NCBI GenBank assembly: GCA_964634325.1
Contig: CAZWJF010000009.1
Coordinates: 94,028-158,027, forward strand
DNA length: 64,000 nt
Source of the DNA: an uncultured Rhodoblastus sp.
GTDB taxonomy: Bacteria > Pseudomonadota > Alphaproteobacteria > Rhizobiales > Beijerinckiaceae
Direction: 5' to 3'
Shown here: positions 39,887 to 58,413 of the stretch, piece by piece
Layout of the letters: the number at the start of each line of letters is the position of its first letter
Numbering within the stretch: the first letter of the stretch is position 1
Position numbers and translations under genes: made by a program
The notes under the pieces: model-generated
What the model saw: only the letters and a program-made list of their open reading frames with translations
Databases searched by the model: none
What the model was told of the DNA's origin: nothing

Positions 39887-40561
39887 TTGCAAGTCGATCT
39901 GTCGGGCAGGGTTGCGCTGGTGACAGGCGCGAGCAGGGGCATCGGCGCCGCCGTTGCGTTCGCTCTGGGCTCCGCCGGCGCGAGAGTGGTCGGTGTCTCT
40001 CGAGCGCAGGGCGTCGACCTGCTCGATCGCGACAGCCGCGCAAAGCTCGATGCGGATGTCGACATCCTCGTGAACTGCGCCGGCATGCAGGCGTCGTCTC
40101 CGGCGCTCGACTATCGGCTCGATATCTGGGACCGCGAAATCGAGATCAATCTGACGGCGATGTTCGATCTCGCGCGTCGCGCCGCGCCCTTCATGATCGC
40201 GCGCGGCTGGGGGCGCATCGTCAATTTCACGAGCATTGCGGGAATTCAGGGCACGCGCGGAATCGTCGGCTATTCGGTCGCCAAGGCCGGCGTGATCGAA
40301 CTGACCAAATGCCTCAGCAACGAATGGAGCCCTCACGGCGTCACGGTCAATTGCGTCGCGCCCGGTTACATCGAAACCGAGATGCTGAGGCCCCTGACCG
40401 GCAACCCCGCCGCGGCTGAGACGACCAAAGGACGAATCCCGATCGGACGGTTCGGCGCGCCTGAAGAAGTGGCGAGCGCGGTCCTGTATCTGTGCAGCAA
40501 TGAATCGAAATACATCACCGGCGTCACGCTGCCGGTCGATGGAGGATGGATGGCGAGATGA
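39887..40561 (+). CDS. Short-chain dehydrogenase/reductase (compact, 224 aa)
   Basis: TTG start. VALVTGASRGIG, NCAG, YSVAKAGV (YxxxK), PGYIETEM. Its stop overlaps the radical-SAM start as ATGA. Confidence 0.8.
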   Translation: MQVDLSGRVALVTGASRGIGAAVAFALGSAGARVVGVSRAQGVDLLDRDSRAKLDADVDILVNCAGMQASSPALDYRLDIWDREIEINLTAMFDLARRAAPFMIARGWGRIVNFTSIAGIQGTRGIVGYSVAKAGVIELTKCLSNEWSPHGVTVNCVAPGYIETEMLRPLTGNPAAAETTKGRIPIGRFGAPEEVASAVLYLCSNESKYITGVTLPVDGGWMAR

Positions 40562-41598
40562 AGATTCAAACGATCGACCTTCGGCATAACAAGCGGGTCA
40601 ATCTCGGCGAGGCGGCCCCGTTGCCCGCGCCGTTTTCGCTGTACCTCGAGCCAACCAGCCTGTGCAACATGCGCTGCGAATTCTGCCCGACCGGCGATGC
40701 GAACCTGCGCAAGCAGCGCCCTAACGGCATGATGGATCTGGCGCTGGTCGACAAGCTCGTCGCCGATATCAAGGATTGGGGGATCCAGCTTCGCCGCATC
40801 AATCTCTACAAGGACGGCGAGCCTACGCTGCACAAGCAATTCGTGGAGATCGTCGAGACCCTCAAACGGGGCGCCGTTGCCCGAGAATTGTGGACCAAGA
40901 CGAACGGCCTGCTGCTGAACCCCGATCTCAACCAGCGGCTGATCGGAAGCGGACTCGACATGATCGGCGTGTCGATCAACGCGGTCAGCGGCGACGGCTA
41001 CATGCGGGTGACGCGCACGAAACTCGATTACGACAGACTCGTCGCCGGCGTGACAGACCTGTGCGAGCGCGCAAAGTCGGCGAATGTCCGCGTCCTCGTG
41101 AAGATCGCGGATTCGGGCTTCACGCCGGAGGAAATCCAGAAATTCCATTCGGACTTCGCAGCGGCGCAATATCTGTCGGTCGAGCAATTGCACGGCTGGG
41201 CCGCGTCCGACGCCAAGGACTGGACGCTCGGCACGAACCCCACGACATTCGAGGGCGCTGCGCTGACCGACAAGATCGCGTGCCCGCTCCCCTTCTTCAT
41301 GCTCGCTGTCAACTGGAACGGAACGGTCGGCCTGTGCAACGACGACTGGCTGCACGCCACATTGTGCGGCGATCTGCGCAAGCAGTCTCTGAAGGACATC
41401 TGGCACGGCGAGGAGTTGCGCAAGCTGCGTCTCATGCATCTCGAGGACCGTCGCCGGGAGAACGGGGCCTGTGGCAATTGCAGCAACCTGCGCACGCTGC
41501 CGGACAACATCGACGCTCATCGCCTCGGCATCTGGAAGCGGATGCACGAGCGCAGCGAGGCAGAGGCGGGGAGCGACGCCGGCAGGATCGCGGTGTAG
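40558..41598 (+). CDS. Radical SAM enzyme with C-terminal SPASM/twitch-like Cys-rich domain
   Basis: 346 aa from ATG 40558. CNMRCEFC (CxxxCxxC). C-terminal cysteines CPLPFF...GLCNDDW...LCGDL...ACGNCSN. Confidence 0.8.
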   Translation: MKIQTIDLRHNKRVNLGEAAPLPAPFSLYLEPTSLCNMRCEFCPTGDANLRKQRPNGMMDLALVDKLVADIKDWGIQLRRINLYKDGEPTLHKQFVEIVETLKRGAVARELWTKTNGLLLNPDLNQRLIGSGLDMIGVSINAVSGDGYMRVTRTKLDYDRLVAGVTDLCERAKSANVRVLVKIADSGFTPEEIQKFHSDFAAAQYLSVEQLHGWAASDAKDWTLGTNPTTFEGAALTDKIACPLPFFMLAVNWNGTVGLCNDDWLHATLCGDLRKQSLKDIWHGEELRKLRLMHLEDRRRENGACGNCSNLRTLPDNIDAHRLGIWKRMHERSEAEAGSDAGRIAV

Positions 41599-41610: not shown

Positions 41611-42576
41611 TCAGAAGTTGATGCGTTCCTTCTCGATCACGAGCGGAAAATTGCGCGCGTAGTTCAGCAAGAGGCCAATGTATTCTCCGACGACGCCGAG
41701 CGCGAAGAGCTGTATCGAACTCAGGAAGAACACCGCGATCAGAACCGGCGCGACCCCGATCGGAAAGCTGTTCCAGAAGAGCAGCTTGACGATGAGGTAG
41801 ACCAACCCGGCCGCGAAACTGAGCAACGACGCGAAAAAGCCGAGAAACGTCATCAGCCGCAGCGGCGCGCGCGAGGAAGTCGACAGGCCGACAAGCGCGT
41901 AGTCTGCGAGCGAATACAGCGTGTAGCTGGAGCGCCCGTGCCGGCGGGGCGGCTGTTCGTATTCGACGAATGCGCGCTCGAACCCGACTTCCATCACGAG
42001 GCCCCGGAAGTAGGGTTCCGGTTCGTTGAGGGCGCGCATGGCGTCGATCACGCAGCGATCGTAGAGCCCGTATCCCATGTAATGCGGGATTTGTTCGATC
42101 TTCGACAGCCGCCGGATGAGCCAGTAGAAGGCGCTGCGCGCGAGCCCCAGAAGCGGATTCTCGGGCATCGGCTTCTTGACCGCGATGACGGTCTTGGCGC
42201 CCTGTCGCCACAGGCGAACCATTTCGGGGATGAGCGACGGCGGGGTCTGCAGGTCGGCCAGGACGGGCACGACCGCGTCGCCGCTCGCCAGAAGCGTCGC
42301 GTGGAACGGCGACCGCTGCGGCCCGAAATTGCGGGAATTGACGATCACCTTGACGCGCTTGTCGCCGGCGGCGATCTCCCGCAGCAGATCGACCGTACGG
42401 TCGCGCGAGCAATTGTCGATGAAGATGTGCTCGTAGGAGACGTCCGCCAGGTCGCGCGCCATGACGTCGCGGACGCTCTCGTAGCAGGCGACGATGCCGC
42501 CTTCCTCATTGTAGCAGGGCGTGACGATGCTCAGGACGGGCATGGACGAAGGCTCGGTAGCGTAAGCGCGCACCAT
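41611..42576 (-). CDS. GT2 polyprenyl-phosphate glycosyltransferase (GtrB/ArnC/DPM1-like)
   Basis: 321 aa. LSIVTPCYNEE...FIDNCSRD (DxD-like)...SRNFG... and two C-terminal TM helices ending VVGEYIGLLLNYARNFPLVIEKE, the hallmark of lipid-phosphate sugar synthases. Confidence 0.85.
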   Translation of the reverse strand: MVRAYATEPSSMPVLSIVTPCYNEEGGIVACYESVRDVMARDLADVSYEHIFIDNCSRDRTVDLLREIAAGDKRVKVIVNSRNFGPQRSPFHATLLASGDAVVPVLADLQTPPSLIPEMVRLWRQGAKTVIAVKKPMPENPLLGLARSAFYWLIRRLSKIEQIPHYMGYGLYDRCVIDAMRALNEPEPYFRGLVMEVGFERAFVEYEQPPRRHGRSSYTLYSLADYALVGLSTSSRAPLRLMTFLGFFASLLSFAAGLVYLIVKLLFWNSFPIGVAPVLIAVFFLSSIQLFALGVVGEYIGLLLNYARNFPLVIEKERINF

Positions 42577-43813: not shown

Positions 43814-45223
43814 TTAACCGGCGCGACGAGCCAGCGACGCCAGCGCCGAGACCGGCAGCAGGCGGTCGTCGATATAGAAGTCCGCGGCCGGTTTGCCGAA
43901 GTGCAATTCGTGATAACGCAGGCCCCAGCGCGCAAATTGATCCTCGGTCACCTTCCGCCAGTCCATGCCTGTGGCCGATCCGCGTGCGGTGAACATCACG
44001 ATGCGATGGCCCTGGTCGAAGAGCTCGTTGACCGCCGCAATCGCCTGCTCCAACGGTTCGGCGAGCGTGTAGTCATTGCCGGGCGTGAGGCTTGCGACGA
44101 CGCCGTCCACATCGACGACGAAGGTCAGCCGCGCATCGCTTGCATGTTCGTTCCGGTGGAGCGCCGGGCTCGGCGCGGGCGAGTGGCTTCGCGCGCGGGC
44201 ATGGTCGACCGTCTTGAGGATCGCCGAATCGAGCGACGTCCAGACGTCGAGGCCGAGCGCACGCGCCCGCGCGATCGAGGGAATGTAACGCGACCGCGCT
44301 GCATTCGCGTTCGCTTCGCCCTTGATGATTGCGCGTCGCCCGTCGGCCGCATGATGCGCGGCCTTGCGCGCGAGATCGCCAATCGCAATCGGCTCGTCGG
44401 AGCCGACGTTATAGGCGGCCCCCGCGCGGCCTTTCGCCAGCAGCGTCAGAAGCCATACTGCAAGATCGCCGGCGTAAAGATAGCTGCGCAAGGGCGAGCC
44501 GTCGCCCGCGACGACAACGTCGCGCCCGGCGACCGCGTCGCCAATGAAATTGCCGATCGCGAAATGCGCATCGAGCGGCAGGCCGGGTCCAACGAAGGCG
44601 AAGGCGCGCGCGATCACCGGCTGCAATGCGCCCTTCGCCATGGCGCATACGCACATCTGTTCGGCGACCCGCTTCGCCTGTCCGTAGGCCGAGCGTGGAT
44701 CGCATGGATCTGGCGCGCCACGATAATCCTCGTCGATGGCGTCGATGTCGGTTGGTTGGGGGCCGTAGACCGCGCCTGAACTGACGTAGAGCAGGCGCTC
44801 GGCGCGGGCCGCCGCGGCGAACTCGAGCACGCGCGCCGTTCCCGAGACAATCGTGTCGATCAGCGTCGCGGAATCGGAATCGGCCGCGACGCTTGTGTCC
44901 GTCGCCGCGTGAATGACATGACTGAAGCGGCCTTTCGGAAATTCGAAATAGCGCACGTCGCCATGCGCGAGGCTGATCGCCGCATGGTCTGCGAGCGCAG
45001 GATATGCAGCCCGGAACGCTTGCGGATTGCGCGTGAGCGCTGTGGCGCGAATGCCGAATTGGCGGTGCGCGCGCGCGATCGTCGCAAGCAGCCAGCGCCC
45101 GAAGAATCCCGTGCCGCCGGTGATGAACAGATTTGCGCCGCGCAGGCTCTCGAGCGCCGGGCCGCAATGCGCGATCGCCTCGTCGAGATCGCGCGGATCG
45201 AGCCCGTCGTAATCCTCGGTCAT
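43814..45223 (-). CDS. NAD-dependent sugar epimerase/reductase (extended SDR) fused to a HAD-like phosphatase domain
   Basis: 469 aa. N-terminal ~330 aa has ITGGTGFFG and SAYGQAK (YxxxK). The C-terminal ~120 aa has FVVDVDGVV (DxDG nucleophile motif)...MFTARG...GKPAADFYIDDR. ATGA overlap with the upstream ThDP enzyme. Confidence 0.8.
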   Translation of the reverse strand: MTEDYDGLDPRDLDEAIAHCGPALESLRGANLFITGGTGFFGRWLLATIARAHRQFGIRATALTRNPQAFRAAYPALADHAAISLAHGDVRYFEFPKGRFSHVIHAATDTSVAADSDSATLIDTIVSGTARVLEFAAAARAERLLYVSSGAVYGPQPTDIDAIDEDYRGAPDPCDPRSAYGQAKRVAEQMCVCAMAKGALQPVIARAFAFVGPGLPLDAHFAIGNFIGDAVAGRDVVVAGDGSPLRSYLYAGDLAVWLLTLLAKGRAGAAYNVGSDEPIAIGDLARKAAHHAADGRRAIIKGEANANAARSRYIPSIARARALGLDVWTSLDSAILKTVDHARARSHSPAPSPALHRNEHASDARLTFVVDVDGVVASLTPGNDYTLAEPLEQAIAAVNELFDQGHRIVMFTARGSATGMDWRKVTEDQFARWGLRYHELHFGKPAADFYIDDRLLPVSALASLARRAG

Positions 45224-47106
45224 GCCGGTTCGCGCGCCGCGGCTTTCGGCAGGAGATGCGCTGGCGCGGAGTCAGACGCGGGGTCGAGCGGTACGATCAT
45301 GTTGGCCCGCAGTTCGTCGCGCGGCAGAAGCGGCGACATGTCTTCGAGCGGCATGGAGCGCATCGATCCGTCGGCCTGCGGCAGCGCGGCCGATTTCGGG
45401 AAGAGCGCTTCGTCGGCGACGACTTTCACGTCGACCAGCAGCGGCCCGCAATGCGACAGCGCGCGTTGCAGACCCTCGTGCAGATCGGCCGCGTCTTCGA
45501 TCCGGAAGGCTTCCCATCCGAATGTCTTCGCCAGCGCCACGAAATCCGGAATGTCGAGCTTTCCGGCAGATCCGCTGCCGACATATCGGCCATCGAAGTA
45601 GTTGCGCTGCGTATTGCGGATCGAGGCGTAGCCGTTGTTGTTGAATACGATCAGCCGTAGCGGAATCTTCTGGCTGGCGATGGTCTGCATCTCCTGCAGA
45701 TTCATCATCAGCGAACCGTCGCTTTCGATTCCCACGAACGGCCGGCGATCCGACGCCATATAGGCGCCGATCATAGCGGGCAGCCCATAGCCCATCGCAC
45801 CGAGGCCCGAAGTCAGGAAGACGCGCTGGCCTTCCTTGTTCTGAAAGCCCGTGTAGAAAAATTCGATTGCGAGGCCCGAGCTTCCGGTGACGATCAGCGA
45901 ATGCGCCGGCAATTCATCGGACAGCGCTTGCGTCAAATGGAAGTGGCTGATGGGGCCGCGCGTCGGAAACGGGGCGCCGTCGTTGATCGGATAACGCCGC
46001 TTCCAGTCCGCGCAGCGCGCGAGCCACGCGCTGCGGTCGCGCGGGTTCGACTGGCGCGCAATCGGGATCATCGTCTCGATGAAATCGCGCGCGTCAGCCT
46101 GCACGCGCAGGACGAAGCTTTCGACGCCATCGAACTTGGCGAGCTCAGCCGGGTCGACGTCGACCATCACTTTCTTCGCATGTCGTCCGAATTTTTCCGG
46201 ATTGTGCGCGGTCACCACATTGTCCAGCCGGGCGCCGACAGCGATCACGAGATCGGAATTCTGGATCGCGAAATTCGGAGCGCGCAATGCGACGACGCCC
46301 GGCTTGCCGACGCTGAGCGGATGATCGGCGGGCGCCAGGTCGGTCGCGTTCCAGGTCGTCACGACCGGAATGCGCAAGGTCTCGTAGAGCGTGCGAAACT
46401 GCTCGGCGGCTTCCGCCAGACGAACGCCGTGGCCAGCAAGGATGATCGGCCGCTCGGCCTCCTCGATCAGGTCCATGATTTGCGCGCAAGCGTCGCTAAG
46501 CGCGGCGCTCGAATCTGAAGAAACCGGGGCGTCGAAAGGACGAAGCGAGGCGGGATCGATGGAAGCCGCCTGCACGTCGAGCGGTATGTCGATCCAGACG
46601 GGGCCGCGCCGGCCTGTCGTCGCCAGATGGACAGCTTGTTCGAGATGAACACGTATGTCCTGCGGATCGAGCACGGTCGCCGCATACTTGGTGATCGGCC
46701 GGACGATGGAGACGATGTCGACTTCTTGCGGCCCCATCTGGCGCACACCGCTGTCGCCCATCATGTCGGACCGTTTCACCTGACCCGAAATGATAAGAAG
46801 CGGCACGGATTCGATCCACGCGCCGGCGCAGGCCGTCACGGCGTTCGTGCCGCCGGGCCCCGTCGTCACGAGCGCGCAGCCGAGATGGCCGTTGACGCGC
46901 GAATAGGCTTCCGCAGCGATCGAGGACGCCTGTTCGTGATGGTTGGGCACATAGTCGAGCCCCGGCGTATTGCCGAAGGCGTCGCAGAGATACATCGCTC
47001 CGCCGCCGGGGACGAGAAACACAGAGCCGACGCCCTGGTCGCGAACGAAGGCGGCGACATAGTCCGCGAGACGAATCGTATTCGGGCCGGTCATGCGCGC
47101 GTCCAT
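45220..47106 (-). CDS. Thiamine-diphosphate enzyme of the acetolactate-synthase superfamily (YerE-like candidate)
   Basis: 628 aa. N-terminal Pyr domain (VFLVPGGGAMY...HHEQASSIAAEAYSR...TTGPGGTNA). ThDP motif IESDGSLMMNLQE-X-LIVFNNNGY (DG-X24-NN). Confidence 0.85.
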   Translation of the reverse strand: MDARMTGPNTIRLADYVAAFVRDQGVGSVFLVPGGGAMYLCDAFGNTPGLDYVPNHHEQASSIAAEAYSRVNGHLGCALVTTGPGGTNAVTACAGAWIESVPLLIISGQVKRSDMMGDSGVRQMGPQEVDIVSIVRPITKYAATVLDPQDIRVHLEQAVHLATTGRRGPVWIDIPLDVQAASIDPASLRPFDAPVSSDSSAALSDACAQIMDLIEEAERPIILAGHGVRLAEAAEQFRTLYETLRIPVVTTWNATDLAPADHPLSVGKPGVVALRAPNFAIQNSDLVIAVGARLDNVVTAHNPEKFGRHAKKVMVDVDPAELAKFDGVESFVLRVQADARDFIETMIPIARQSNPRDRSAWLARCADWKRRYPINDGAPFPTRGPISHFHLTQALSDELPAHSLIVTGSSGLAIEFFYTGFQNKEGQRVFLTSGLGAMGYGLPAMIGAYMASDRRPFVGIESDGSLMMNLQEMQTIASQKIPLRLIVFNNNGYASIRNTQRNYFDGRYVGSGSAGKLDIPDFVALAKTFGWEAFRIEDAADLHEGLQRALSHCGPLLVDVKVVADEALFPKSAALPQADGSMRSMPLEDMSPLLPRDELRANMIVPLDPASDSAPAHLLPKAAAREPA

Positions 47107-47111
47107 GCCTC

Positions 47112-48638
47112 TCAGATCCAGTAGCGCAGGATCGTCTTGCGGTTCGGATTCTCGTTGATCGCTTCATCGGTGTAGAAGGAGTCGTTGACGAAATGCGTCG
47201 ACGAAATCTCCTCGAACACCGCGCCGGTGTCGCTCTCGAAAGCGTGCCGGACGCCCGGCGCGATGGTCACGACCGCGCCCGGTCCGCAGATGCGCTCTTC
47301 GCCGTCGAGCTGCAATTTCAATTCGCCATGCAGGACGTGGAAGGTCTCTTCCTTCAGCTTGTGGAATTGCTCGGGATGTCGCTGACCGGGCAGGACGACG
47401 ATGAGCTTCTTGCAGTAGCCGCGGTTCACGACGGTCACCATGGTCAGGCCATAGGCGTCGAACCGCTCGATCCCGAAGTGATGCGAAATCTCCAGTTCCG
47501 CCTCGCCTGGCACGACGCCCTTGCTCTCCTTGAGCAATTGCTTCACCCGTCCGACGATGGACAGCACCTTGGCGCGAACTTCCTTGCGCTCGGTCGCTTC
47601 CGCCATGACGGGCGCGTCGGCCGGCAGGTCGCGCGTCGCCGTGAATTGCGAATACTTCGACCAGTCGTTGGCGGTTATCTGTCCGGACTGCGTCGGAATC
47701 GCGAAGAACACGTCGTCCGATTTGATCCTTTGTCCCTTGGCGACCGGGCGTTTGAGGAACGCGCCGCGACGCAAATCGCGCAAGGCGGCGAGTTCGTCCG
47801 GGGTGGGATCGATGCGCTCGCCGACGACGCCGGCGATTTGATAGGCCTTGCGCGCCGCTTCGAGCCAGGCGCGGGCCTGCTGCGGATTGGCGGAATAGTT
47901 GTTCAACGGATAGGCGTCGGTCGGCACGCCGATATGCTTCTCGAACAACGCCGCGCCTTTGGCGATCGCCATGGCCACAGGCATGGTCTCGTTCGGATCC
48001 TCGTGCGTCGAATAGCCGATGCGCAGCTGCGGATAGCGATGCTTCAATATGTCGATCTGGTTGAGCTGCAACGCCGCGTTCTGCGTCGGATATTGCGCGA
48101 CGCAGGCCATCAGCGCGAAATCCTTGTCGCGGTGCGTCAGGAACGCCACGACATTGTCCATGTCGGAATATTCGACGCCCGCAGTCGAGCCGACGATCGG
48201 CAGATTGACGGTCGCGATCTTTTCGAGCAGCGGCCAGTCCGTGAACGAGCAACTGGCGATTTTCAGTATGTCGAACCCGTCTTCGACGATGCGGTCCACG
48301 GACGGTTCGTCAAACGGCGTGCACATCGCCAGAAAGTCGTTGGACTTGATCTCGTCCACCAGACGTCTCGTCTCGTCACGGCTCAACCGCGTTTCCGAAA
48401 AGCGCTTGATGTACTTGATGTCCATACGGCCCTTGAAGGCCGGATGGATGAAGGTGTCGAGCTCGCGAAACTGCAGCTTGAAGGCGAAAGTGAAATCGAA
48501 ATCCTTCGCGAGAGCGCCGAACTCCCGGATGACGCGCAGTCCGTGTTCGACGTCGCCCATGTGATTGTTGGCGAGTTCGAAGATGAACAGCGGATTGGGC
48601 AGGCTGTTGCGCGGCATGGCGACCGTCTTGTCCAGCAT
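47112..48638 (-). CDS. NeuB-type sialic-acid-synthase-like domain + SAF domain + C-terminal cupin (D-lyxose/mannose-isomerase-like)
   Basis: 508 aa from ATG 48638 (GAGGGA upstream). LFIFELANNHMGD...FKLQ...KIASCSFTDWPLLEKIA...PIVGSTAG...YSTHE...FEKHIG (NeuB TIM barrel). LRRGAFLKRPVAKGQRIKSDDV (SAF). QRHPEQFHKLKEETFHVLHGELKL...GVRHAF (cupin). Confidence 0.8.
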   Translation of the reverse strand: MLDKTVAMPRNSLPNPLFIFELANNHMGDVEHGLRVIREFGALAKDFDFTFAFKLQFRELDTFIHPAFKGRMDIKYIKRFSETRLSRDETRRLVDEIKSNDFLAMCTPFDEPSVDRIVEDGFDILKIASCSFTDWPLLEKIATVNLPIVGSTAGVEYSDMDNVVAFLTHRDKDFALMACVAQYPTQNAALQLNQIDILKHRYPQLRIGYSTHEDPNETMPVAMAIAKGAALFEKHIGVPTDAYPLNNYSANPQQARAWLEAARKAYQIAGVVGERIDPTPDELAALRDLRRGAFLKRPVAKGQRIKSDDVFFAIPTQSGQITANDWSKYSQFTATRDLPADAPVMAEATERKEVRAKVLSIVGRVKQLLKESKGVVPGEAELEISHHFGIERFDAYGLTMVTVVNRGYCKKLIVVLPGQRHPEQFHKLKEETFHVLHGELKLQLDGEERICGPGAVVTIAPGVRHAFESDTGAVFEEISSTHFVNDSFYTDEAINENPNRKTILRYWI

Positions 48639-48749: not shown

Positions 48750-50339
48750 TTAGCGGCTGTCCGCCTTTGGAACAGTTTTCCCGCTCACTCCAGGGGAGAA
48801 GGTCGGATCGACGCCATAGCCGAAATCCGGCCAGCACTGGCGCACGTCGACGGGGCGATGCGTCGCGCCGTCGGAGTTCATCAACCAGGCCGGCATCGTC
48901 CGGCGGTCGACCGCGTAATTGCTCGGCGCGTCCTCGCCGGCCAACGCCGCATTGGCTTCAAACAGCGAGCAATCGCTGATCGGATACCGCTGGAAGACGG
49001 CGGCGCGCGTGAGTTCGACGGCGGCCGAGGGCGCGCAGAGCCCGAGGACCAGAGCGCCGAGATAGCGTGCGAACGTGCCGCGGCGCGCCGGATCGAGCAG
49101 GACAGAGCCGAAGCAGAAGGCCACAATCGTAAGCGCCGAAATCGAGCCGCGCATCACCAGATCGTTGGCAGGTCCAAACCGCCCGAGCGGCAGGGCGACG
49201 AGCAGGATCAGGCTGAAGATCAGCAGACCGCGGTCCGCGGAGGGCACGTAGCGTCGGTACAGCGCGATATAGCCGACAGGAACGAAAGCGGCGAGGATGA
49301 AGACGATATAAAGCAGCCAGAATTCTTCGCGGTCGCTGCTCAATCCGTGATCGATCGTCTCCGCGCCGATGACCATATAGGCCGCGACCGGGATGAAGCC
49401 CACGGCGACCGCGGCCACCGACCACAGTCGCGCGGAGGTCAGGCTGACCCGAAAATTCGCGGCGATCCGAAGCACGATCCACAAGGCTGCGGGCAGGATG
49501 GCTAGCGGCGACCAGAACAGGGCGCCGCCGATGGAAACGGCCACGGTCGCCTCGTCGAGCTGACGTCGCGCGAGCAGCAACAGCAGCATGGCCAGCCACC
49601 AGCCTGGCAGCGCATGGTTCGGAACCCAGAAGAACTGGACGAGAGACGCGGAATACTGGAAATGCGGGTTCCAGGAATCAAAGCCGATATAAAGCAACCG
49701 GCCGAGCGTGAGCGGCATTTCGCCGACCATCACCAGCACGATGCCCAGCGCCGAACAGCCAGCGAGCAGAACCATGACGACGACATGCCGGAACCCGTGT
49801 CCGATCGTGGCGATCAGATAGAAGACGGCGCCGAGAAACAGGCTGTTCTGCGCGAACAACGCGACATGAGCGGCGTACAGGCCAAACGCGCGGCCGACGA
49901 GGGCCGGCAGCATATACATGCCGAGCGGCGCGCGCGTGACGTAGTCGACGCCTTTGTAGTCGTAGGCAGACGGAAAACCCGTCGTGACGAGATCGCCGAG
50001 CACCGCGTCGCGGATGCGCCAGTCGAGCGGCGTGTGAAGCAGATGCAACTGTCCGCCCAGAAGGAAGATCGCTGCGGCGAACGCGACCGCGACCGCAAGA
50101 CGGTTGCGCTGGATCGGTTCGTCGAGAAGGCCGTCGCAGGACGGCGCGCGCGCGATGAGGACCATCGCGCCGACGCACGCTCCAAGAAGAAGGGCTGCAG
50201 GCGCAGGGCGCAAATGCAACGCAAGCAACGCCGACGACGCGAACATCAGGAACGAGGTGAAAGCGACGAGCGCGCGGTTGGTCAGCGTCGCGCTGCGGAC
50301 CGATGCGCTGACGTCCGAACCAACCGCGAAATCGCTCAT
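48750..50339 (-). CDS. Large polytopic membrane protein, candidate GT-C-type lipid-carrier-dependent glycosyltransferase (GtrC analogue)
   Basis: 529 aa from ATG 50339 (ATGA overlap with the gtrA stop). More than 12 predicted TM helices and a ~100-aa non-hydrophobic C-terminus. The function is positional inference only. Confidence 0.5.
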   Translation of the reverse strand: MSDFAVGSDVSASVRSATLTNRALVAFTSFLMFASSALLALHLRPAPAALLLGACVGAMVLIARAPSCDGLLDEPIQRNRLAVAVAFAAAIFLLGGQLHLLHTPLDWRIRDAVLGDLVTTGFPSAYDYKGVDYVTRAPLGMYMLPALVGRAFGLYAAHVALFAQNSLFLGAVFYLIATIGHGFRHVVVMVLLAGCSALGIVLVMVGEMPLTLGRLLYIGFDSWNPHFQYSASLVQFFWVPNHALPGWWLAMLLLLLARRQLDEATVAVSIGGALFWSPLAILPAALWIVLRIAANFRVSLTSARLWSVAAVAVGFIPVAAYMVIGAETIDHGLSSDREEFWLLYIVFILAAFVPVGYIALYRRYVPSADRGLLIFSLILLVALPLGRFGPANDLVMRGSISALTIVAFCFGSVLLDPARRGTFARYLGALVLGLCAPSAAVELTRAAVFQRYPISDCSLFEANAALAGEDAPSNYAVDRRTMPAWLMNSDGATHRPVDVRQCWPDFGYGVDPTFSPGVSGKTVPKADSR

Positions 50340-50791
50340 GTCGCGCTCCGGAAGACAAAGTCGCGGCTCAGGACGTAGGAAATCGTCACGGCGCCGGGCA
50401 GAAGCAGCAGGCCGGCGAGCCATGGTGCGACATGAGCTTGCTCCAGAGCCGCGAGACCAGCCGCGTTGTAGACGAACACCACGCCATAGACGCCGAAGAA
50501 CCGGACGAGATTGCCGGCGCCGTGGGCGCGGAACACGAAGCGTCCGGTCGTGCGGAAGTTGAACAGAATGCCGAGGATCGTCGAGATGACGAGCGCAGAA
50601 AACGTCGTCGGCATGATCGCCAGCGCGACAAGGAATAATCCGTATCCGAAAGCCGTATTCACGCCGCCGACGATCAGAAACCGCAAGACTCGGTGGCGTT
50701 CCAGCAGGCCGCGCGTCGAGGCGACGATGTTGTGAAGCCCAGCGCGGCGTGGCGCGGGTCGCTCCTCGCGATCGTCGACGGACGGAATCAC
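50336..50791 (-). CDS. gtrA: GtrA-family small membrane protein (lipid-linked sugar translocation)
   Basis: 151 aa. ...[18 protein letters not shown]... and four TM helices ending [14 protein letters not shown] overlap with the upstream ddhC stop. Confidence 0.8.
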
Positions 50792-52131
50792 GCGACCTCG
50801 CGCGGCAGATTGCGGGCGAGGCCGCGCAGCGTCTCGATGACGAAATCGATTTCAGCCTCGCCGAGGCCCGGATAGACGCCGATCCAGAATGTACGGTCGA
50901 CCACGATATCGGCGTTCGTCAGCGGGCCGGCGATGCGATAGTCGCGGCCCTTCATGTACGGCTGGCGCACGAGATTTCCGCCGAACAGCAGACGTGTGCC
51001 GATGTTGCGCGCCTGCAGTTCGAGCAGCAGAGCATGGCGCGACAGCGGCGCGTCCTTGCGCAGGGTGATCGGAAATCCGAACCACGAGGGTTCCGTTCCC
51101 GGCGTCGCCTCCGGCAGGATGAACACGTCCTCAAGCGACGCGAGGCCATCGCGCAACCGTGCGAAATTGCGACGGCGCGCGGCGATGAATTCGTCGAGGC
51201 GTTCGAGCTGCGCGACGCCCACCGCCGCCTGCATGTCGGTGATCTTCAGATTGTAGCCGAGATGCGAATAGACGTACTTGTGATCGTAGCCCTTGGGCAG
51301 GTCGCCGAGCCGCCAGCCGTAGCGCTTGTTGCAGCTGTTGTCCTTGCCTGGATCGCAATAGCAGTCGCGGCCCCAGTCGCGAAACGATTCCATGATCTTG
51401 TCGAGATTGGCGTCGTTCGTGAACACAGCGCCGCCCTCGCCCATCGTGATGTGATGGGCGGGATAGAAGCTCAGCGTGCCGATGTCGCCGAACGTGCCGA
51501 CATGCTTTCCGCCCACGGTCGCGCCGAGCGCGTCGCAGCAATCTTCGATCAGAAACAGGCCATGCCGATCGCACAACTTGCGGAGCGCCAGCACGTCGAA
51601 CGGATTGCCGAGCGTGTGGGCGACCATGATCGCGCGCGTGCGCGGTCCGATCGCCGCTTCCAGGGCCGCGACGTCGATGTTGTAGGTCGGTATGTCCACA
51701 TCGACAAAGACGGGGACCATATTGTGTTGCAGGATCGGATTGACGGTGGTCGGAAACCCGGTCGCACAGGTTACGACCTCGTCGCCGGGCTTGAGTTGAC
51801 GCTGCTTGAGGCGCGGCGAGGTGAGCGCCGAAAACGCGACCAGATTGGCCGACGAGCCGGAATTGACGGTCAACGCGTATTTTGCGCCGATGCGGCGGGC
51901 GAGTCTGTCCTCGAATTCGTCGTTGAACCGGCCCGTCGTCAGCCAGAAGTCGAGTGCGGAATCGACCAGCATCTGCATGTCGCGCGCGCCGTAGACGCGG
52001 CCCGACACCGGGACGTTGGGGCGTGAAGGATCGAAGGGCGCACGCTGATGCGCGGCCGCGTGATAGCGCGCGGTCAATTCGAGAATCTGGGCGCGCAGCG
52101 CCTGCGGATCGTCAGGCGCGCTTGCGCTCAT
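50788..52131 (-). CDS. ddhC: CDP-6-deoxy-L-threo-D-glycero-4-hexulose-3-dehydrase (E1; RfbH/DdhC)
   Basis: 447 aa DegT/DnrJ-fold. [14 protein letters not shown] (His in place of the Schiff-base Lys). Cys pattern DC-C...(57 residues)...[11 protein letters not shown] equals C-X57-C-X1-C-X7-C. Confidence 0.9.
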
Positions 52132-53242
52132 GGCGGGGCTCTTGTGTCGGGCGGTCGACGACGCCGGCGTGGGGAGCGTCGAGACGCACGCGTTGACCGA
52201 GATAGGAATCGACCTGTTCGAATGTCGCGCGCCGCACGTCGTCGCCGCGTGCGTAGGCGCCGTACCAGGCGGCCGTCCACGCGAGCGCTTCGTCGAAATC
52301 GAGCAGCGGGCGCCAGCCGAGCGTCGCGTTCGCGCGCGACGTGTCGAGCCGCAGGAGATTGGCTTCGTGCGGATGATGCGCCCGATCGTGCGTCCATCCG
52401 CCGTCGACGCCCATCGCGCGATAGAAGGCGTCGAGCAATTGCGCGACGTTGCGCTCGCCTTCGACGCCCGGACCGAAATTGAATCCGCCTGATACTCCCT
52501 CCTGCGTCAGCGTTCGTTCCGCGAGCAGAAGGTAGCCGTAGAGCGGCTCCAGCACGTGCTGCCAGGGCCGCACGGCGCCGGGGCTGCGAACCATCAGCTT
52601 TTCGCCGGCGATCCGAGCGCGCACGGCGTCGGGCAGGATCCGGTTTTCCGCGAAGTCGCCGCCGCCGATGACATTGCCGGCGCGCGCCGATACGACGCGT
52701 ACGCCGGTCGCGGCGAGAAAGCTCTCGGAATAGGCGGAGGTCACGAGTTCAGCGCAGGCCTTGCTGCTGGCGTAAGGATCGCGGCCGCCGAGACGGTCGG
52801 TCTCGCGATAGCCCCAAACCCATTCCCGGTTGTCGTAGCACTTGTCGGTGGTGACCACGACGACGGCGCGCACGCTCGGCGTTCTGCGAACGGCCTCCAG
52901 CAGCGCGACTGCGCCCATCACGTTCACGCGGTAGGTCTCGACCGGATCGCGATAGCCCCAGCTGACCAGAGGCTGCGCGGCCATGTGGAACACGATGTCC
53001 GGTTCGCTCGCAGCCAGCGCCGCCTCGAGCGGGGCGAGGTCGGCGATGTCCCCGCGCCGGTCGTCGATCAGCGCCCCGGCGCCGATCATGTCGAACAAGC
53101 TCGGATTGGTCGGCGGCGCCAGTGCGTAGCCGGTCGCGCGCGCATTCAGCCGCTCCAGCATCGCCGACAGCCATGCGCCCTTGAAGCCCGTGTGGCCGGT
53201 GACGAAGACGCGTTTGCCGCTCCAGAAGGAGGAGGAGATCAC
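52112..53242 (-). CDS. rfbG: CDP-glucose 4,6-dehydratase
   Basis: 376 aa from GTG 53242 (GTGA overlap with the rfbF stop). [20 protein letters not shown]..., YASSKACAE (YxxxK). The 73-codon upstream extension of the track ORF overlaps rfbF and was rejected. Confidence 0.88.
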
Positions 53243-54009
53243 CAGCGCCTCCACTTCGCCTGGTCCGACGCCCATTCCTCTTCCAGGAACATCTTGTCGC
53301 GCAGCGTATCCATGGGATGCCAGAAGCCGTCGTGCAGATAGGCGCGCATCTGGTCCTCGTCGACCAGACTCGACATGGGGCCGCGCTCCCAGATCGTTTC
53401 GTCGCCCTCGATGCGGTCGATCACGCGCGGCGACAGCAGGAAGAAGCCGGCGCTGACCCAATCTTCGCGGTTTTCAGGCTTTTCGCGGAACGAGAGAATT
53501 CGGTCGCCGGTCAGGTTGATCTCGCCGAACTGGCGCTTCGGCCGGACGGCGGCCACCGTAGCAAGCCTGCCGTGCGCGCGATGAAACGCAAGCTCCGCCC
53601 TGAGGTCGATGTCGGAGACGCCGTCGCCATAGGTCAGCGCGAAAACGTCGTCGTCTTGCAGATGGTCGCGGACGCGCTTGATTCGCCCGCCGGTCATCGT
53701 CCTTTCGCCCGTATCCACCAGCGTGACGCGCCAGGGTTCGGCGGTCTGGCGATGCACTTCCATGCGATTGTTGGCCAGGTCGAACGTGACGTCCGACATG
53801 TGCAGGAAGTAGTTCGCGAAAAATTCCTTGATGTAATAGCCCTTGTATCCCAGGCAGATCACGAACTCGTTGAACCCCTGCGACGAGTATATTTTCATGA
53901 TGTGCCAGAGGATCGGCCGGCCGCCGATTTCGACCATGGGCTTGGGCCGGATCGTCGTTTCCTCGACGAGCCGCGTGCCTAGCCCGCCGGCGAGGATGAC
54001 GACCTTCAT
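53239..54009 (-). CDS. rfbF: Glucose-1-phosphate cytidylyltransferase
   Basis: 256 aa. MKVVILAGGLGTRL.EET..RPKPMVEIGGRPILWHIMKIYS..GF.EFVICLGYKGY.IKEFF.NY is the RfbF signature. Confidence 0.92.
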   Translation of the reverse strand: MKVVILAGGLGTRLVEETTIRPKPMVEIGGRPILWHIMKIYSSQGFNEFVICLGYKGYYIKEFFANYFLHMSDVTFDLANNRMEVHRQTAEPWRVTLVDTGERTMTGGRIKRVRDHLQDDDVFALTYGDGVSDIDLRAELAFHRAHGRLATVAAVRPKRQFGEINLTGDRILSFREKPENREDWVSAGFFLLSPRVIDRIEGDETIWERGPMSSLVDEDQMRAYLHDGFWHPMDTLRDKMFLEEEWASDQAKWRRW

Positions 54010-54134: not shown

Positions 54135-56009
54135 TCAGCTCAGGATTTTCAGGATCGCCTCGACGCAGGCGTCGGGATCGAGTTCGGCGGTCAGCAGATG
54201 CGCCTCCGGCGCCTGCGGCGGCTCGTAGGGGCTGTCGACGCCGGTGAAGTTCTTGAGCTTTCCGGCGCGGGCGAGCGCATAGAGCCCCTTGGCGTCGCGC
54301 CGTTCGCACTCTTCGATCGGCGCGTCGACGAAGGCCTCCTTGAAGGTTCCTTCAGCGAACAGATTGCGCGCCATCTGCCGCTCGCTGCGGAAGGGCGAGA
54401 TGAAGCTGACGAGCACGATCAGTCCCGCGTCCACCATCAGCCGGGCGACTTCCGCGACGCGGCGGATGTTCTCGACGCGGTCCGCCTCTGTGAATCCGAG
54501 GTCGCGATTGAGCCCGTGACGTACGTTGTCGCCGTCGAGCAGATAGGTATGGCGACCTTCGGCGTTGAGGCGCTTGTCGAGCAGATTGGCGATCGTCGAC
54601 TTGCCGGACCCCGAAAGGCCGGTGAACCAGACGCACTGCGGCGTTTGATGCTTCTGCGCCGCGCGCGAGGCGGGACGGACCTCGATCGCCTGCCAATGGA
54701 TGTTGCGGGCCCGACGCAGGGCGAAGTCGATCGTTCCCGCGCCGACGGTCGCAAACGTCAGCTTGTCGATCAGGATGAACGAACCGAGCGAGCGATTGAC
54801 GCCATAAGGTTCGAACGGCAATTGCGCGCCCGTTGAGAACGTGATGCGGCCGATTTCGTTCAGGGCCAGCGTCTTGGTCGAAAGATGCGCGCCGGTGTCG
54901 ACGTCTTCCCGATATTTGATTTCGGAAATCGTCGCAGTCGTTTCCTTTGCGCCGAGCTTGAGGAGATATTGGCGCCCCGCGGCCATCGGATTTTCGTCCA
55001 GCCACAGGAGCCGGCCTTCGAACTGATCGGCGGCCTCCGATGGCGCGGCGGCTGCGACGAGCGCATCGCCGCGGCTGATGTCGATCTCGTCGTCCAGCGT
55101 CAGCGTCACGGAATCGCCTGCGCGTGCGTCGACCGCCTGATCGAAGCCGCGGAGAATCGAACGAACGCGCGTCGTCGTTCCCGACGGTACGACGCGAACC
55201 GGATCGCCGGGTCGGACCTCGCCTTGCGCGATCCGCCCGCAATACCCGCGGAAGTCGAGATTCGGACGATTGACGAACTGGACGGACATCCGAAACGGCC
55301 TGTCGACCGCCGCATCCCCGATCTCGATCGCGTCGAGTGCGTCCATGAGGCAAGCGCCAGCGTACCAAGGCGTCGCGGCGCTCTTGGTCATGACGTTGTC
55401 GCCGGCGAGCGCCGAAACCGGAATTGCGGCTATTGTCGCAAGATCGAAACCGGCGGCGAAGGCGCGGTAATCGTCGACGATCCGTTCGAACACGACGCGG
55501 TCGTAGCCGACAAGGTCCATCTTGTTGATGGCGAGAATGACATGACGCACGCCCATCATGGCGACGATGCGCGTATGGCGGCGCGTCTGCACGAGCACGC
55601 CCTTGCGCGCATCGATCAGCAGGACGGCGACGTCGGCCGTTGAAGCGCCCGTCGCCATGTTGCGCGTGTATTGTTCGTGGCCCGGCGTGTCCGCGACGAT
55701 GTAGCGCCGGCGTTCGCTGGCGAAATAGCGGTAGGCGACGTCGATTGTGATGCCCTGCTCGCGCTCGGCTTGCAGGCCGTCGACGAGCAGGGCGAAATCG
55801 ATCTTCTCGCCCTGAGTGCCATATTGGCGAGAGTCGGATTCGAGCGATTGCAGCTGATCGTCGAAGATGCTCTTGCTTTCGAACAGCAGCCGGCCGATCA
55901 GCGTGCTCTTGCCGTCGTCGACGCTGCCGCACGTGATGAACCGCAGCGTGGTCTTGTCGCGTTGCGCGGCGAGGGTCGCTCCGACCAGATGAGACGCAGG
56001 CTGCGGCAT
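54135..56009 (-). CDS. cysNC: Bifunctional sulfate adenylyltransferase subunit 1 / adenylylsulfate kinase (CysN-CysC, NodQ-type)
   Basis: 624 aa. GTPase [33 protein letters not shown]-terminal APS kinase [17 protein letters not shown]. Confidence 0.93.
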
Positions 56010-56893
56010 CAGAAATAGCCTTCCTGCTTGCGTTGCTCCATCGACGCCGGCCGGTCGAAATCGATCAACCGACCCTGCCGTTCGGAGCTGCGTGCGGCGA
56101 AGGTTTCTGCGATGACCTCTTCAATGGTCGAAGCCTCGCTCTCGATCGCTGCGGTCAGCGGCCAGCAGCCGAGCGTACGGAATCGAACCTTGAGCATTTC
56201 GGGCTTTTCGTCCGGCTCGAACGGAAAGCGCTCGTCGTCGACCATCAACAGCTGGCCGTCGCGCCGCACGACCGGACGTTCCGCCGCGAGGTAGAGCGGA
56301 ACGATCGGAATGTTCTCCTGATGGATGTATTGCCAGACGTCCAGTTCGGTCCAGTTGCTCAGCGGAAAGACGCGGATCGTCTCGCCGGGTTTGATATGCG
56401 TGTTGTAGAGCGACCAGAGTTCCGGGCGCTGGCTCTTGGGGTCCCAGCGATGGCCGGGCGCGCGAAACGAGAAGATGCGCTCCTTGGCGCGGCTCTTTTC
56501 CTCATCGCGTCGCGCGCCGCCGAAGACGATGTCGAACTTGTGGAGATCGAGCGCGTCCTTCAGCGCCTGCGTCTTCATCACGTCGGTATGGTAGTTGCTG
56601 CCGTGCGTGAACGGGCCGACGCCGGCCGCGACCCCTTCCGGATTGATATAGGTGAGCAGTTTCGCGCCGCTTTCGGCGACCATGCGGTCGCGATGCGCGT
56701 ACATCGCCTTGAACTTCCAGCCGGTGTCGATGTGCAGCAGTGGAAACGGCGGCGGCGCCGGATAGAAGGCCTTGCGTGCGAGATGGAGAAGGACCGACGA
56801 ATCCTTGCCGATCGAATAGAGCATGACCGGATTGAGCGCGGACGCCACGGCTTCACGAATGATCTCGATCGATTCGGATTCGAGTGAACTCAT
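56009..56893 (-). CDS. cysD: Sulfate adenylyltransferase subunit 2
   Basis: 294 aa. ...[20 protein letters not shown]...[11 protein letters not shown]... Its stop shares one base with the cysNC ATG (TGATG). Confidence 0.93.
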
Positions 56894-57073
56894 TTCCCCC
56901 GTCCGCAGGCCGGATGCGTCGCGACGTCAAAGCCAAGTTCAAGCCAGTGCGGCCGACGTCATGGTCGCCGATGTACTGAAGGCGGCGACCATTTGTTCCT
57001 CCTAGTCGATCCATCTGGCGTTGCAAAGCGACCAAAGTCGATGCGCGCCCTGCGATGCAGGGACGTCACACCA

Positions 57074-57877
57074 TCACCTGCAGGCCCGGGCGCGAAGCAG
57101 CTCCGCTGTAGCTTCGTCGGCGGGATAGAATGTTTCGATCGCCAGCTCCGATAAGGTGATGTCGACAGGCGTGCCGAAGATTGTGATCGTCGAAATGAAC
57201 GAAAGGAGGCTGTCGCCGGATCGCAGAAAAAGCGGAACCGCGATCGCCGGCGCCTCGTTCGACGTGCGCTCGGACCGGGGCCGGCTCTGCGCGCCTGAAG
57301 GCGGCGCATAGGACAGGACCTCGTCGAGCAGGTCCGCGAGGCCGGCGTCGCCGCTCGTGGCGAACTGTTGTTGCAGACGCGCGACGAGATGCGCGCGCCA
57401 TTCCCCGAAATTGACGATGTGCGGCGCAAGACCTTCCGGATGCAGCGCCAGACGCATCGCGTTGGGCTTGTCGAGCAGCGCCGGCGCGACGCCGTCCAGG
57501 AAGCCAGCGGCGCCTGCGTTGAACGCGACGATATTCCACAATCGGTCGACCGCTAGGGCAGGGAAGGGCGCACAGCCCGCCAGCACCGCGTCGACCGCGG
57601 CGCGCGCCGCCGACATCGCAGGATCGTCCAGCGTCCTTTCCGCGTAGAGCGGCGCGAAGCCCGCGGCGAGCAGGATGGCGTTGCGCTCGCGCAGCGGCAC
57701 GGCCAGCGTCTCGGCGAGATGCACGATCATGTCGCGCGAGGGCTGCGCGCGGCCGGTCTCCACGAAACTCAGATGGCGCGCGGAAATCTCGGCTTCGAGC
57801 GCGAGTTCGAGCTGGCTCATGCGCCGACGCTGGCGCCACTGGCGCAGGTATTCGCCTGCAGGTCGGTGGTATCCCAT
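57074..57877 (-). CDS. MmyB-like XRE-family helix-turn-helix transcriptional regulator
   Basis: 267 aa. YLRQWRQRRRMSQLELALEAEISARHLSFVETGRAQPSRDMIVHLAETLAVPLRERN, then an MmyB-type ligand domain. Confidence 0.8.
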   Translation of the reverse strand: MGYHRPAGEYLRQWRQRRRMSQLELALEAEISARHLSFVETGRAQPSRDMIVHLAETLAVPLRERNAILLAAGFAPLYAERTLDDPAMSAARAAVDAVLAGCAPFPALAVDRLWNIVAFNAGAAGFLDGVAPALLDKPNAMRLALHPEGLAPHIVNFGEWRAHLVARLQQQFATSGDAGLADLLDEVLSYAPPSGAQSRPRSERTSNEAPAIAVPLFLRSGDSLLSFISTITIFGTPVDITLSELAIETFYPADEATAELLRARACR

Positions 57878-58000
57878 GTCCGCAATCTAGCGCGCCGGCG
57901 CGGCCATCCAATTACCTCGCGCGTAATCGACGCCAGCGTCCCCCTGGCTCAGGCTTTCTCCATTCCGCTTTCCGCAGCGGTCGAAGAAAGGAGAAGTTCC

Positions 58001-58396
58001 ATGCGCTTCGTCGTCCCGTCCCCGCTCTTGCGCAATGTCCTGATCGTCGACGCCGCCTTCAGCGGCGCGTCGGGCCTGACGCTCGCCGCGGCGGCCGAGC
58101 CGTTGGCCGCCGCCTTCGCGTTGCCGCACGCGCTCCTGCTGGGCGCCGGCGTGTTCTGCATGGTCTACGCCGTCATTGTCGGCTCGCTCGGCCTGGCGGC
58201 CATGCTGCCGCGCGGCCTCGTGTGGTTCGTCGTGGCGGGCAACGCGCTCTGGACGATCGAAAGTCTCGTCCTGCTCGCGCAAACCTCGCCGACGTCGCTT
58301 GGGATCGCCGCGGTCGTCGCGCAGGCGACGGTCGTCGCGGCGATTGCGGCGGGACAGTGGATCGGGCTGAAGCGGTCCGAGCCCGCGCCGGCCTGA
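58001..58396 (+). CDS. Small membrane protein divergent from the MmyB-like regulator
   Basis: 131 aa from ATG 58001 (AGGAGA upstream) with four hydrophobic helices. The longer track ORF (from 57719) overlaps the regulator gene. Confidence 0.5.
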   Translation: MRFVVPSPLLRNVLIVDAAFSGASGLTLAAAAEPLAAAFALPHALLLGAGVFCMVYAVIVGSLGLAAMLPRGLVWFVVAGNALWTIESLVLLAQTSPTSLGIAAVVAQATVVAAIAAGQWIGLKRSEPAPA

Positions 58397-58413
58397 CGCT
58401 TCGGCGTCAGCGC

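Follow-up and report, generated by a model that had tools for sequence, protein, structure and literature searches.

What is the role of a NeuB-type synthase that carries an isomerase-like domain of its own, and that is encoded without any of the partner genes of the NeuB, Pse or Leg routes? The question is raised by a gene in the 64,000-nucleotide stretch of DNA analysed here (“the window”: positions 94,028 to 158,027 of contig CAZWJF010000009.1, from an uncultured Rhodoblastus species), whose product joins a NeuB-type TIM barrel, an SAF domain and a cupin resembling D-lyxose isomerases. The answer proposed is that this fusion probably supplies the keto-acid donor for a pathway that builds a deoxysugar with a long carbon branch: it would make a 3-deoxy-2-ulosonic acid from an aldose and phosphoenolpyruvate (PEP), and the acid would then be consumed by the thiamine diphosphate (ThDP)-dependent carboligase encoded next to it.

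The fusion gene lies on the minus strand at 47112-48638, where 508 codons plus the stop specify a product of 508 amino acids; its ATG is at 48638, with the ribosome-binding site GAGGGAG 8 nt upstream, and its TGA stop occupies 47112-47114. Its organization was determined from the translation, Pfam, a structure model and Foldseek. The TIM barrel covers approximately residues 12-275 (47814-48605) and was identified by Pfam, by an alignment of 43 orthologues and by Foldseek, residues 54-270 matching the NeuB family PF03102 with E = 1e-34 (120.3 bits against a cut-off of 22.1). The SAF, or antifreeze-like, domain follows at about residues 285-350 (47589-47786) and was found by Pfam, at 21.6 bits for residues 291-347, barely above the cut-off of 21, and in alignments. 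The remainder, from about residue 355 to residue 508 (47115-47576), is the D-lyxose-isomerase-like cupin, on which Pfam, phmmer, alignment and Foldseek all bear: in Pfam, residues 413-471 match Cupin_2 (E = 7e-11) and residues 387-432 give a partial match to Lyx_isomer (PF07385; 22.5 bits against a cut-off of 20.8). A model of the fusion built by AlphaFold2 from the 43 orthologues is confident, with a mean pLDDT of 91.9. In Foldseek comparisons with the PDB, the first ~340 residues of this model match 3g8r best, with a target-normalised TM score of 0.96, and NeuB and PseI next, while the last ~165 residues match D-lyxose isomerases ahead of all other cupins, with a root-mean-square deviation of 1.8 Å over 164 columns for 2y0o and further fold matches to 7nzo-q and 3kmh. 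At the sequence level phmmer relates the cupin to 2y0o at 9e-9, and the alignment with 2y0o and 7nzo spans both cupin motifs as well as the flanking YCxK and SST...D..FTD blocks. The tri-domain make-up is confirmed, Pfam, PDB searches and Foldseek being in agreement with the architecture that a preliminary description had read from the letters; the motifs on which that reading drew are all in the translation, at residues 21-29 (ELANNHMGD), 53-56 (FKLQ), 126-132 (KIASCSF), 151-154 (STAG), 210-213 (STHE) and 233-237 (EKHIG) in the barrel, and at 421-438 (HPEQFHKLKEETFHVLHG) and 462-467 (GVRHAF) in the cupin.

The preliminary description had named the conservation of the PEP- and metal-binding residues of NeuB as a check on the synthase assignment, and these residues are invariant across the 43 orthologues, which are 49-84% identical: E21, K54/Q56, T107, K126/S129, S151, S210/H212 and E233/H235. 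Their counterparts in Neisseria meningitidis NeuB (1xuz) are the metal ligands H215 and H236 and the PEP- and substrate-binding residues E25, K53/Q55, K129/S132, S154, S213 and E234. The fusion therefore has in common with the NeuB, PseI and LegI enzymes of PF03102 not only the succession of TIM barrel and SAF domain but also both metal histidines and the residues that bind PEP. It differs from them in its additional cupin, in lacking their partner genes, and in the SAF domain, where R291 and G292 are invariant but the position of R314 of the N. meningitidis enzyme is occupied by I314 in the fusion and by I, F or M in the column as a whole. R314, which was placed by comparing 4ipi with 4ipj, entries that differ at that residue alone, is the arginine that contacts the N-acetyl group of N-acetylmannosamine; since it is absent, the aldose that the fusion uses is probably not N-acetylated. 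The fusion also falls far below the NCBIfam equivalog cut-offs for NeuB (TIGR03569; 119.7 bits against 399.65) and for PseI (TIGR03586; 94.8 against 340.25). Judged by these sequence criteria it is a distinct subfamily of PF03102, and it is the only PF03102 gene in the genome.

The cupin domain looks catalytically competent from the pattern of its conserved residues. H426, K429, E431 and H465 are invariant in the 43 orthologues, and the putative metal ligands are Q/H424, H426, E431 and H465, with glutamine at position 424 in most orthologues and histidine in several loci (L038, L050, L061, L074 and L080). Both glutamine and histidine are able to bind metal, and type I phosphomannose isomerase has a glutamine among its metal ligands. 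With the D-lyxose/D-mannose isomerases (Bacillus subtilis YdaE, 2y0o; the Thermofilum enzyme, 7nzo; Escherichia coli Z5688, 3kmh) the cupin shares the fold over its whole length, a putative metal site, and the YCxK, PGQ..PE and KxETF motifs and the final histidine. It departs from them in having mostly glutamine for the first histidine of the HxH motif, a six-residue deletion after that motif, a C-terminal tail with invariant R500, K501 and W507, and a synthase fused to it. Basic residues specific to the fusion family occur in both catalytic parts (R58, K75, K78, R79, R500 and K501), and the substrate of the fusion cupin may be phosphorylated. The conserved metal sites of the two domains would fit the earlier suggestion that the fused isomerase generates in situ the aldose used by the NeuB domain. 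An RmlC-like role, in which the cupin would epimerize a CDP-sugar, was considered and rejected, because both fold and motifs match the metal-dependent lyxose isomerases specifically.

Gene linkage gives an indication of what the fusion product is used for. A scan of one genome per species yielded 80 full-length orthologues of the fusion, from Alpha-, Beta- and Gammaproteobacteria, Mycobacterium, Acidobacteriota, Nitrospirota, Patescibacteria, Bacteroidales, Verrucomicrobiota and others, and the neighbourhoods of all 80 were searched by tblastn with the neighbouring proteins of the window. In the window the gene for the ThDP enzyme (45220-47106, minus strand) begins with an ATG 5 nt past the stop codon of the fusion. 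An orthologue of this enzyme lies near the fusion and on the same strand in 77 of the 80 loci, downstream in 75 and upstream in 2, and in the other three (L052, L061 and L065) the contig ends just past the fusion gene. The two genes are directly adjacent in 42 loci, and in 33 they are separated by a gap of 150-1100 bp; the gaps that were inspected hold a gene for a ~195-residue protein similar to haloacid dehalogenase (HAD) phosphatases, with a DVDD motif. Across loci the percent identities of fusion and ThDP enzyme to the window copies are correlated with r = 0.91, which, related genomes being non-independent, shows co-inheritance only.

The ThDP enzyme belongs to the acetolactate-synthase superfamily, and its best PDB relative is 8rph, matched over the full length with E = 2e-114, whereas the match to acetolactate synthase is weaker (8e-82). 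As we take 8rph to be JanthE, a YerE-like enzyme, the profile and PDB matches, together with the linkage, mark the window protein as a probable carboligase of the YerE/JanthE/MyGE group. Its ThDP-binding motif reads SDG (ESDGSLMMNLQ) and not the canonical GDG; 8rph has CDG there.

Enzymes of this kind are at the centre of a unifying scheme, proposed and partly demonstrated by Steitz et al. (2022; PMC9306805), in which a YerE-like ThDP enzyme uses a functionalised alpha-keto acid to put a long branch on CDP-4-keto-3,6-dideoxyglucose, and the adduct is then the substrate of a reductase. The donor of YerE itself is pyruvate, but the branches of the other sugars treated in that work are longer, with four carbons in erwiniose, six in caryophyllose and seven in the “gastriose” of Mycobacterium gastri, which is described as highly hydroxylated; the corresponding ThDP enzymes are ErwE, MMAR_2332 and MyGE, of which MyGE accepted C3-C8 alpha-keto acids, and the keto acids are attributed to pyruvate aldolases, either of the BphI or of the HpcH/citrate-lyase type (PMC9306805). 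Gastriose was assigned to MyGE, an “aldolase MygI” and the reductase MygF (PMC9306805); the sugar is a constituent of the M. gastri lipooligosaccharide.

The M. gastri locus (L012) contains, in order, genes for a polyketide synthase (type I by its Pfam domains), GtrA, RfbG, RfbH, RfbF, a family 2 glycosyltransferase (GT2), the NeuB-cupin fusion, the ThDP enzyme, a HAD phosphatase, two methyltransferases and a short-chain dehydrogenase/reductase (SDR), and assemblies bearing the names M. canettii and M. marinum carry the same cassette. No aldolase of the HpcH or BphI type was found within 10 kb in M. gastri, where ten open reading frames of the locus were compared with Pfam and the others were identified by similarity, and on this ground MygI is taken to be the M. 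gastri counterpart of the window fusion, with 63% identity between the two proteins. The two ThDP enzymes are 69% identical, and the gastriose cluster and the window operon share, besides these two genes, RfbF, RfbG, RfbH, GT2, GtrA, a HAD phosphatase and an SDR, and with them the logic by which a ThDP enzyme links a keto acid to CDP-4-keto-3,6-dideoxyglucose before a reduction. The window operon differs in having no O-methyltransferases, in a HAD phosphatase of another subfamily that is fused to the SDR, and in an alphaproteobacterial host with a Gtr-type transfer module. A literature search on YerE or ThDP-dependent sugar branching in combination with neuraminate or sialic acid synthases, or on the M. 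gastri sugar, returned nothing beyond two papers of the Mueller group.

The acceptor required by this logic can be made by three genes of the window, all on the minus strand and all scoring above their equivalog cut-offs: RfbF, glucose-1-phosphate cytidylyltransferase (53239-54009; 413 bits, cut-off 300); RfbG, CDP-glucose 4,6-dehydratase (52112-53242; 449 bits, cut-off 278); and RfbH, the E1 enzyme or CDP-6-deoxy-4-hexulose 3-dehydrase (50788-52131; 724 bits, cut-off 423). Together they constitute the route to CDP-4-keto-3,6-dideoxyglucose. A reductase partner for RfbH (E3, of the AscD/RfbI type) was not seen among the operon genes scanned. Directly adjoining the ThDP gene on its downstream side is a single fused open reading frame (43814-45223, minus strand) that encodes an SDR of the extended type, putatively the side-chain ketoreductase in the role of YerF or MygF, followed at residues ~365-469 by a small capless HAD phosphatase of the EcbF/BcbF-like type, whose closest PDB relative is 9iqw, a “capsule biosynthesis protein”.

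From these components the following pathway can be proposed for the Rhodoblastus host. The analysis shows which domains are present, that their catalytic residues are conserved and that the genes are linked; what the pathway says of substrates, of chain length, of the point at which phosphate is removed and of the fusion product as a donor is prediction. The cupin domain would convert a common ketose, or its phosphate, into the matching aldose; the most probable starting sugar is a pentulose (xylulose or ribulose, for instance, perhaps in the form of its 5-phosphate), and a lyxose-isomerase-like domain could in this way turn a pentulose taken from central metabolism into an uncommon aldopentose. 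The NeuB domain would condense the aldose with PEP to a 3-deoxy-2-ulosonic acid, most likely a Kdo-like C8 acid (Kdo being 3-deoxy-D-manno-octulosonic acid), that is, a 3-deoxy-octulosonate. The ThDP enzyme would decarboxylate this acid to a C7 acyl-anion equivalent and attach it at C4 of the CDP-4-keto-3,6-dideoxy-D-glucose made by RfbF, RfbG and RfbH, the SDR would reduce the new ketone on the side chain, and the branched sugar would be moved via a polyprenyl phosphate carrier to an envelope glycan. ThDP enzymes of this type remove C1 of a 2-keto acid and transfer the remainder, so a branch derived from an ulosonate would have an oxygen at C1', a methylene at C2' that stems from C3 of PEP, and hydroxyl groups along the rest of the chain. 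This pattern is that of caryophyllose and also of gastriose, whose side chain was reportedly described by Gilleron et al. in 1993 as 1,3-dimethoxy-4,5,6,7-tetrahydroxyheptyl. A C7 branch implies a C8 keto acid, which in turn implies PEP plus a pentose.

The predicted involvement of a sugar phosphate derives from the phosphatases of the cassette. HAD phosphatases of four subfamilies occur in it in 62 of the 80 loci: the EcbF/BcbF-like type of the window, the phosphoglycolate-phosphatase-like type of M. gastri, the HAD-like type with the DVDD motif, and a Cof type. This variety is non-orthologous displacement of a single function; because different phosphatases fill the same slot, a dephosphorylation step is likely to be part of the pathway, and because a phosphatase is conserved, carbon is likely to enter as a sugar phosphate. 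The HAD phosphatase would strip the phosphate either after the synthase, giving the sequence ketose phosphate, aldose phosphate, ulosonate phosphate, ulosonate that is followed in the Kdo and KDN-9-phosphate routes (KDN being the nonulosonic acid made from mannose 6-phosphate), or ahead of the isomerase, giving the sequence ketose phosphate, ketose, aldose, ulosonate. The second order would fit the fact that the known lyxose isomerases and bacterial NeuB take unphosphorylated substrates.

Several observations weigh against the donor pathway or limit how far it can be carried. That characterised lyxose isomerases act on unphosphorylated sugars can be accommodated if the phosphatase acts first; the substrate named for the fusion is a prediction in either case. 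Ulosonic acids are mostly cyclic in solution, while ThDP enzymes need the open-chain keto form. The chain length in the host is extrapolated from M. gastri across the 63% identity of the two fusions, the equation of MygI with the NeuB-cupin protein is tentative, and no assayed member of the fusion family was found in the literature. In 22 of the 80 loci there is no RfbH within 10 kb of the fusion, and in 18 no recognised HAD phosphatase, so that these loci may have a different acceptor or phosphatase step, or carry the genes for it at another site. Finally, the genome contains two KdsB-like genes outside the operon, which could in principle activate an ulosonic acid.

This last point leads to the alternative in which the fusion makes a KDN- or Kdo-like acid for a glycan, activated by a cytidylyltransferase encoded elsewhere, while the ThDP enzyme acts independently, for example by adding a two-carbon branch of the yersiniose type from pyruvate. 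Glycan ulosonic acids are what NeuB-family enzymes normally make, two PF02348 genes (KdsB/NeuA type) are available elsewhere in the genome, and YerE itself takes pyruvate, but the alternative is nevertheless unlikely. Profile scans of the operon genes detected no NeuA- or KdsB-like CMP-ulosonate synthetase, and no NeuA/NeuC, PseB-H or LegB-H partner genes are present in the window operon, whose sole gene of the DegT fold is RfbH; the remark in the preliminary description that NeuA/KdsB and the aminotransferase and N-acetyltransferase of the Pse and Leg routes are missing thus holds for the operon. The NeuB-cupin and ThDP genes, moreover, lie on one strand in 77 of 80 loci and usually nearly abut, the ThDP enzyme is 69% identical to the one that M. 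gastri has in its pathway to a C7 branch, and the position that reads the N-acetyl group in NeuB is hydrophobic in the fusion. The same lack of a CMP-activating enzyme in the operon, and the same tie to the ThDP gene, speak against the KDN-like acid suggested in that description, if it is taken to be a free acid that becomes a glycan constituent. Its other suggestion, PEP-dependent chain extension of the deoxyhexose made by the neighbouring genes, survives in part: the link to the deoxyhexose genes is borne out, but direct extension was rejected because C1 of the CDP-sugar is blocked by its nucleotide linkage and offers no free aldehyde. The order of the two enzymes might also be reversed, so that the ThDP enzyme makes an unusual ketose (an acyloin) out of small precursors, the cupin isomerizes it to an aldose and the NeuB domain extends it with PEP to a free ulosonic acid of a new kind. 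The alpha-hydroxyketones that ThDP carboligases form are indeed ketoses, and the 22 loci without RfbH in 10 kb could be read in this sense; this order is still less probable than a separately activated glycan acid, since the ThDP enzyme falls in the YerE/JanthE-like group, which uses ketone acceptors, the genes for the CDP-3,6-dideoxy-4-ketohexose stand beside the pair in most loci, no enzyme for activation of the end product is present, and the product in M. gastri is a branched 3,6-dideoxyhexose.

A further group of explanations connects the fusion with the Kdo of the lipopolysaccharide core. KdsB and the Kdo transferase WaaA are encoded in the genome, which is 96% complete, but a KDO8P synthase was not matched in it by TIGR01362, by PF00793 or by tblastn with the KdsA of a relative, no KdsD scored above the cut-off, and KdsC was likewise not detected; the KdsB-like genes are at C9:49306-49938 and C189:476-1108 and WaaA is at C10:48334-48858, where C9 is the contig of the window (window = C9:94028-158027). 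Given that the predicted product is an octulosonate, the fusion could replace the missing KdsD and KdsA and supply Kdo or Kdo 8-phosphate to the core. This is nonetheless the least probable of the explanations weighed here, because KdsA is also missing from 17 of the 18 genomes sampled in this family, because the fusion occurs in only 2 of 16 other members of the genus, and because it belongs to a glycan island of accessory character and goes together with a ThDP enzyme. KdsA was found in 1 of these 18 genomes, which include assemblies of 7 to 20 contigs, as against 10 of 12 other families of the order. With relatives lacking KdsA and few members of the genus carrying the fusion, the lineage must have another route to Kdo. 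Replacement of KdsA and KdsD was accordingly rejected as the main role, the fusion being so rare in the genus while nearly all the genomes lack KdsA. A related form of the idea, in which the fusion and the HAD phosphatase form a self-contained analogue of KdsD, KdsA and KdsC in NeuB and cupin folds, leading from a pentulose phosphate to a 3-deoxy-octulosonate that serves the core as well as the branch, is very improbable too, ranking below the reversed order and above outright replacement.

The remaining genes of the window operon are compatible with the delivery of a sugar to the cell envelope. The operon is a packed minus-strand array which in the order of transcription comprises cysD, cysNC, rfbF, rfbG, rfbH, gtrA, a gene for a protein of 529 amino acids, the fusion, the ThDP gene, the SDR-HAD gene, an open reading frame of 448 codons and the GT2 gene. 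The GT2 (41611-42576) is by profile match a polyprenyl-phosphate sugar synthase resembling ArnC, GtrB and PgfS, and the gtrA product (50336-50791) is a small membrane protein identified by family match. The 529-residue protein (48750-50339), which the preliminary description took for a polytopic membrane protein, matches no Pfam family and is a candidate periplasmic transferase of a Gtr-type system; its orthologues stand beside the cassette in 6 loci. These three proteins would together carry out the transfer of the branched sugar. The 448-residue product has weak similarity to Acyl_transf_3 (E about 1e-3).

Some features around the operon were recorded as observations in their own right. The genes cysD and cysNC, for synthesis of 3'-phosphoadenosine 5'-phosphosulfate, occupy 54135-56893 on the minus strand, co-directional with rfbF and 125 nt upstream of it; no sulfotransferase was recognised in the window, and one is encoded near the cassette in the assembly labelled M. 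marinum (L091:1642-2649). Two open reading frames upstream of cysD and cysNC (57066-58951) have no Pfam or NCBIfam match. On the plus strand at 39887-41598, convergent with the island, a gene for a classical SDR of 224 amino acids is translationally coupled to one for a radical-SAM/SPASM enzyme, and this pair is conserved beside the cassette in L008 at 79% and 76% identity. Among the 80 loci, RfbH is found within 10 kb of the fusion in 58 and the SDR in 54, and the genes often seen nearby also encode sugar C-methyltransferase-like proteins, FkbM methyltransferases, radical-SAM enzymes and Nudix hydrolases. In 33 of the 80 loci the cassette has a radical-SAM gene near it, and the enzymes may tailor the side chain. 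In several loci, from an Acidobacteriaceae genome and from Sulfuricellaceae (Sulfuricella) genomes, flagellin-like and FliD cap-like sequences, identified by eye, lie beside the cassette (at L072:101-1633 and L024:5797-6513, and among the neighbours of clusters 18 and 20 in other loci), which suggests that flagellin is glycosylated with the branched sugar there.

The pathway proposed here is probably a variation on the published unifying scheme, one that depends on PEP and has an isomerase coupled to the synthase; the core chemistry of the scheme is already in the literature. With the erwiniose (ErwI/J/E/F) and caryophyllose (MMAR_2331/2332) systems it shares a dedicated carbon-carbon bond-forming enzyme that makes a gamma-hydroxy alpha-keto acid and a YerE-like ThDP enzyme that grafts the acid at C4 of a CDP-dideoxyketohexose. 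Those systems rely on small aldehydes and on pyruvate aldolases (BphI type or HpcH/citrate-lyase type) and produce C4 or C6 branches, whereas the window encodes a PEP-dependent synthase of the NeuB fold with its own isomerase, and the predicted branch is longer and polyhydroxylated. The predicted succession of isomerase, PEP-dependent synthase and HAD phosphatase is also that of the KdsD/KdsA/KdsC route and of the route from mannose 6-phosphate to KDN-9-phosphate, but there the isomerase (SIS, as against the cupin here) and the synthase family have unrelated folds, and the product is activated with CMP and not, as predicted for the fusion product, consumed by a ThDP enzyme.

A structure already in the PDB bears on the same family. 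Entry 3g8r, a “probable spore coat polysaccharide biosynthesis protein E” of 350 residues from Chromobacterium violaceum with no assigned function, matches residues 12-349 of the fusion with E = 2e-125 and is 85% identical to the N-terminal part of a full-length fusion from C. subtsugae. The crystallised construct has no cupin, and by these matches it is most likely a truncated member of the fusion family that comprises the NeuB and SAF domains.

The fusion family is widespread, and its probable role extends a published scheme. If the pathway is as proposed, the orphan structure 3g8r would gain a likely function, and biocatalysis would gain a single protein able to turn common ketoses into chiral C8 keto acids, of a kind accepted by MyGE-type carboligases. 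The role of the NeuB family would be widened beyond sugars displayed on glycans to include the provision of carbon-branch donors for thiamine-dependent sugar branching. The combination of a NeuB-SAF-cupin fusion, a YerE-like ThDP enzyme and a HAD phosphatase would then serve across many phyla as a sequence signature for 3,6-dideoxyhexoses with a long, polyhydroxylated branch, and these sugars would decorate the surface glycans of organisms in nearly all of which none has been described so far.

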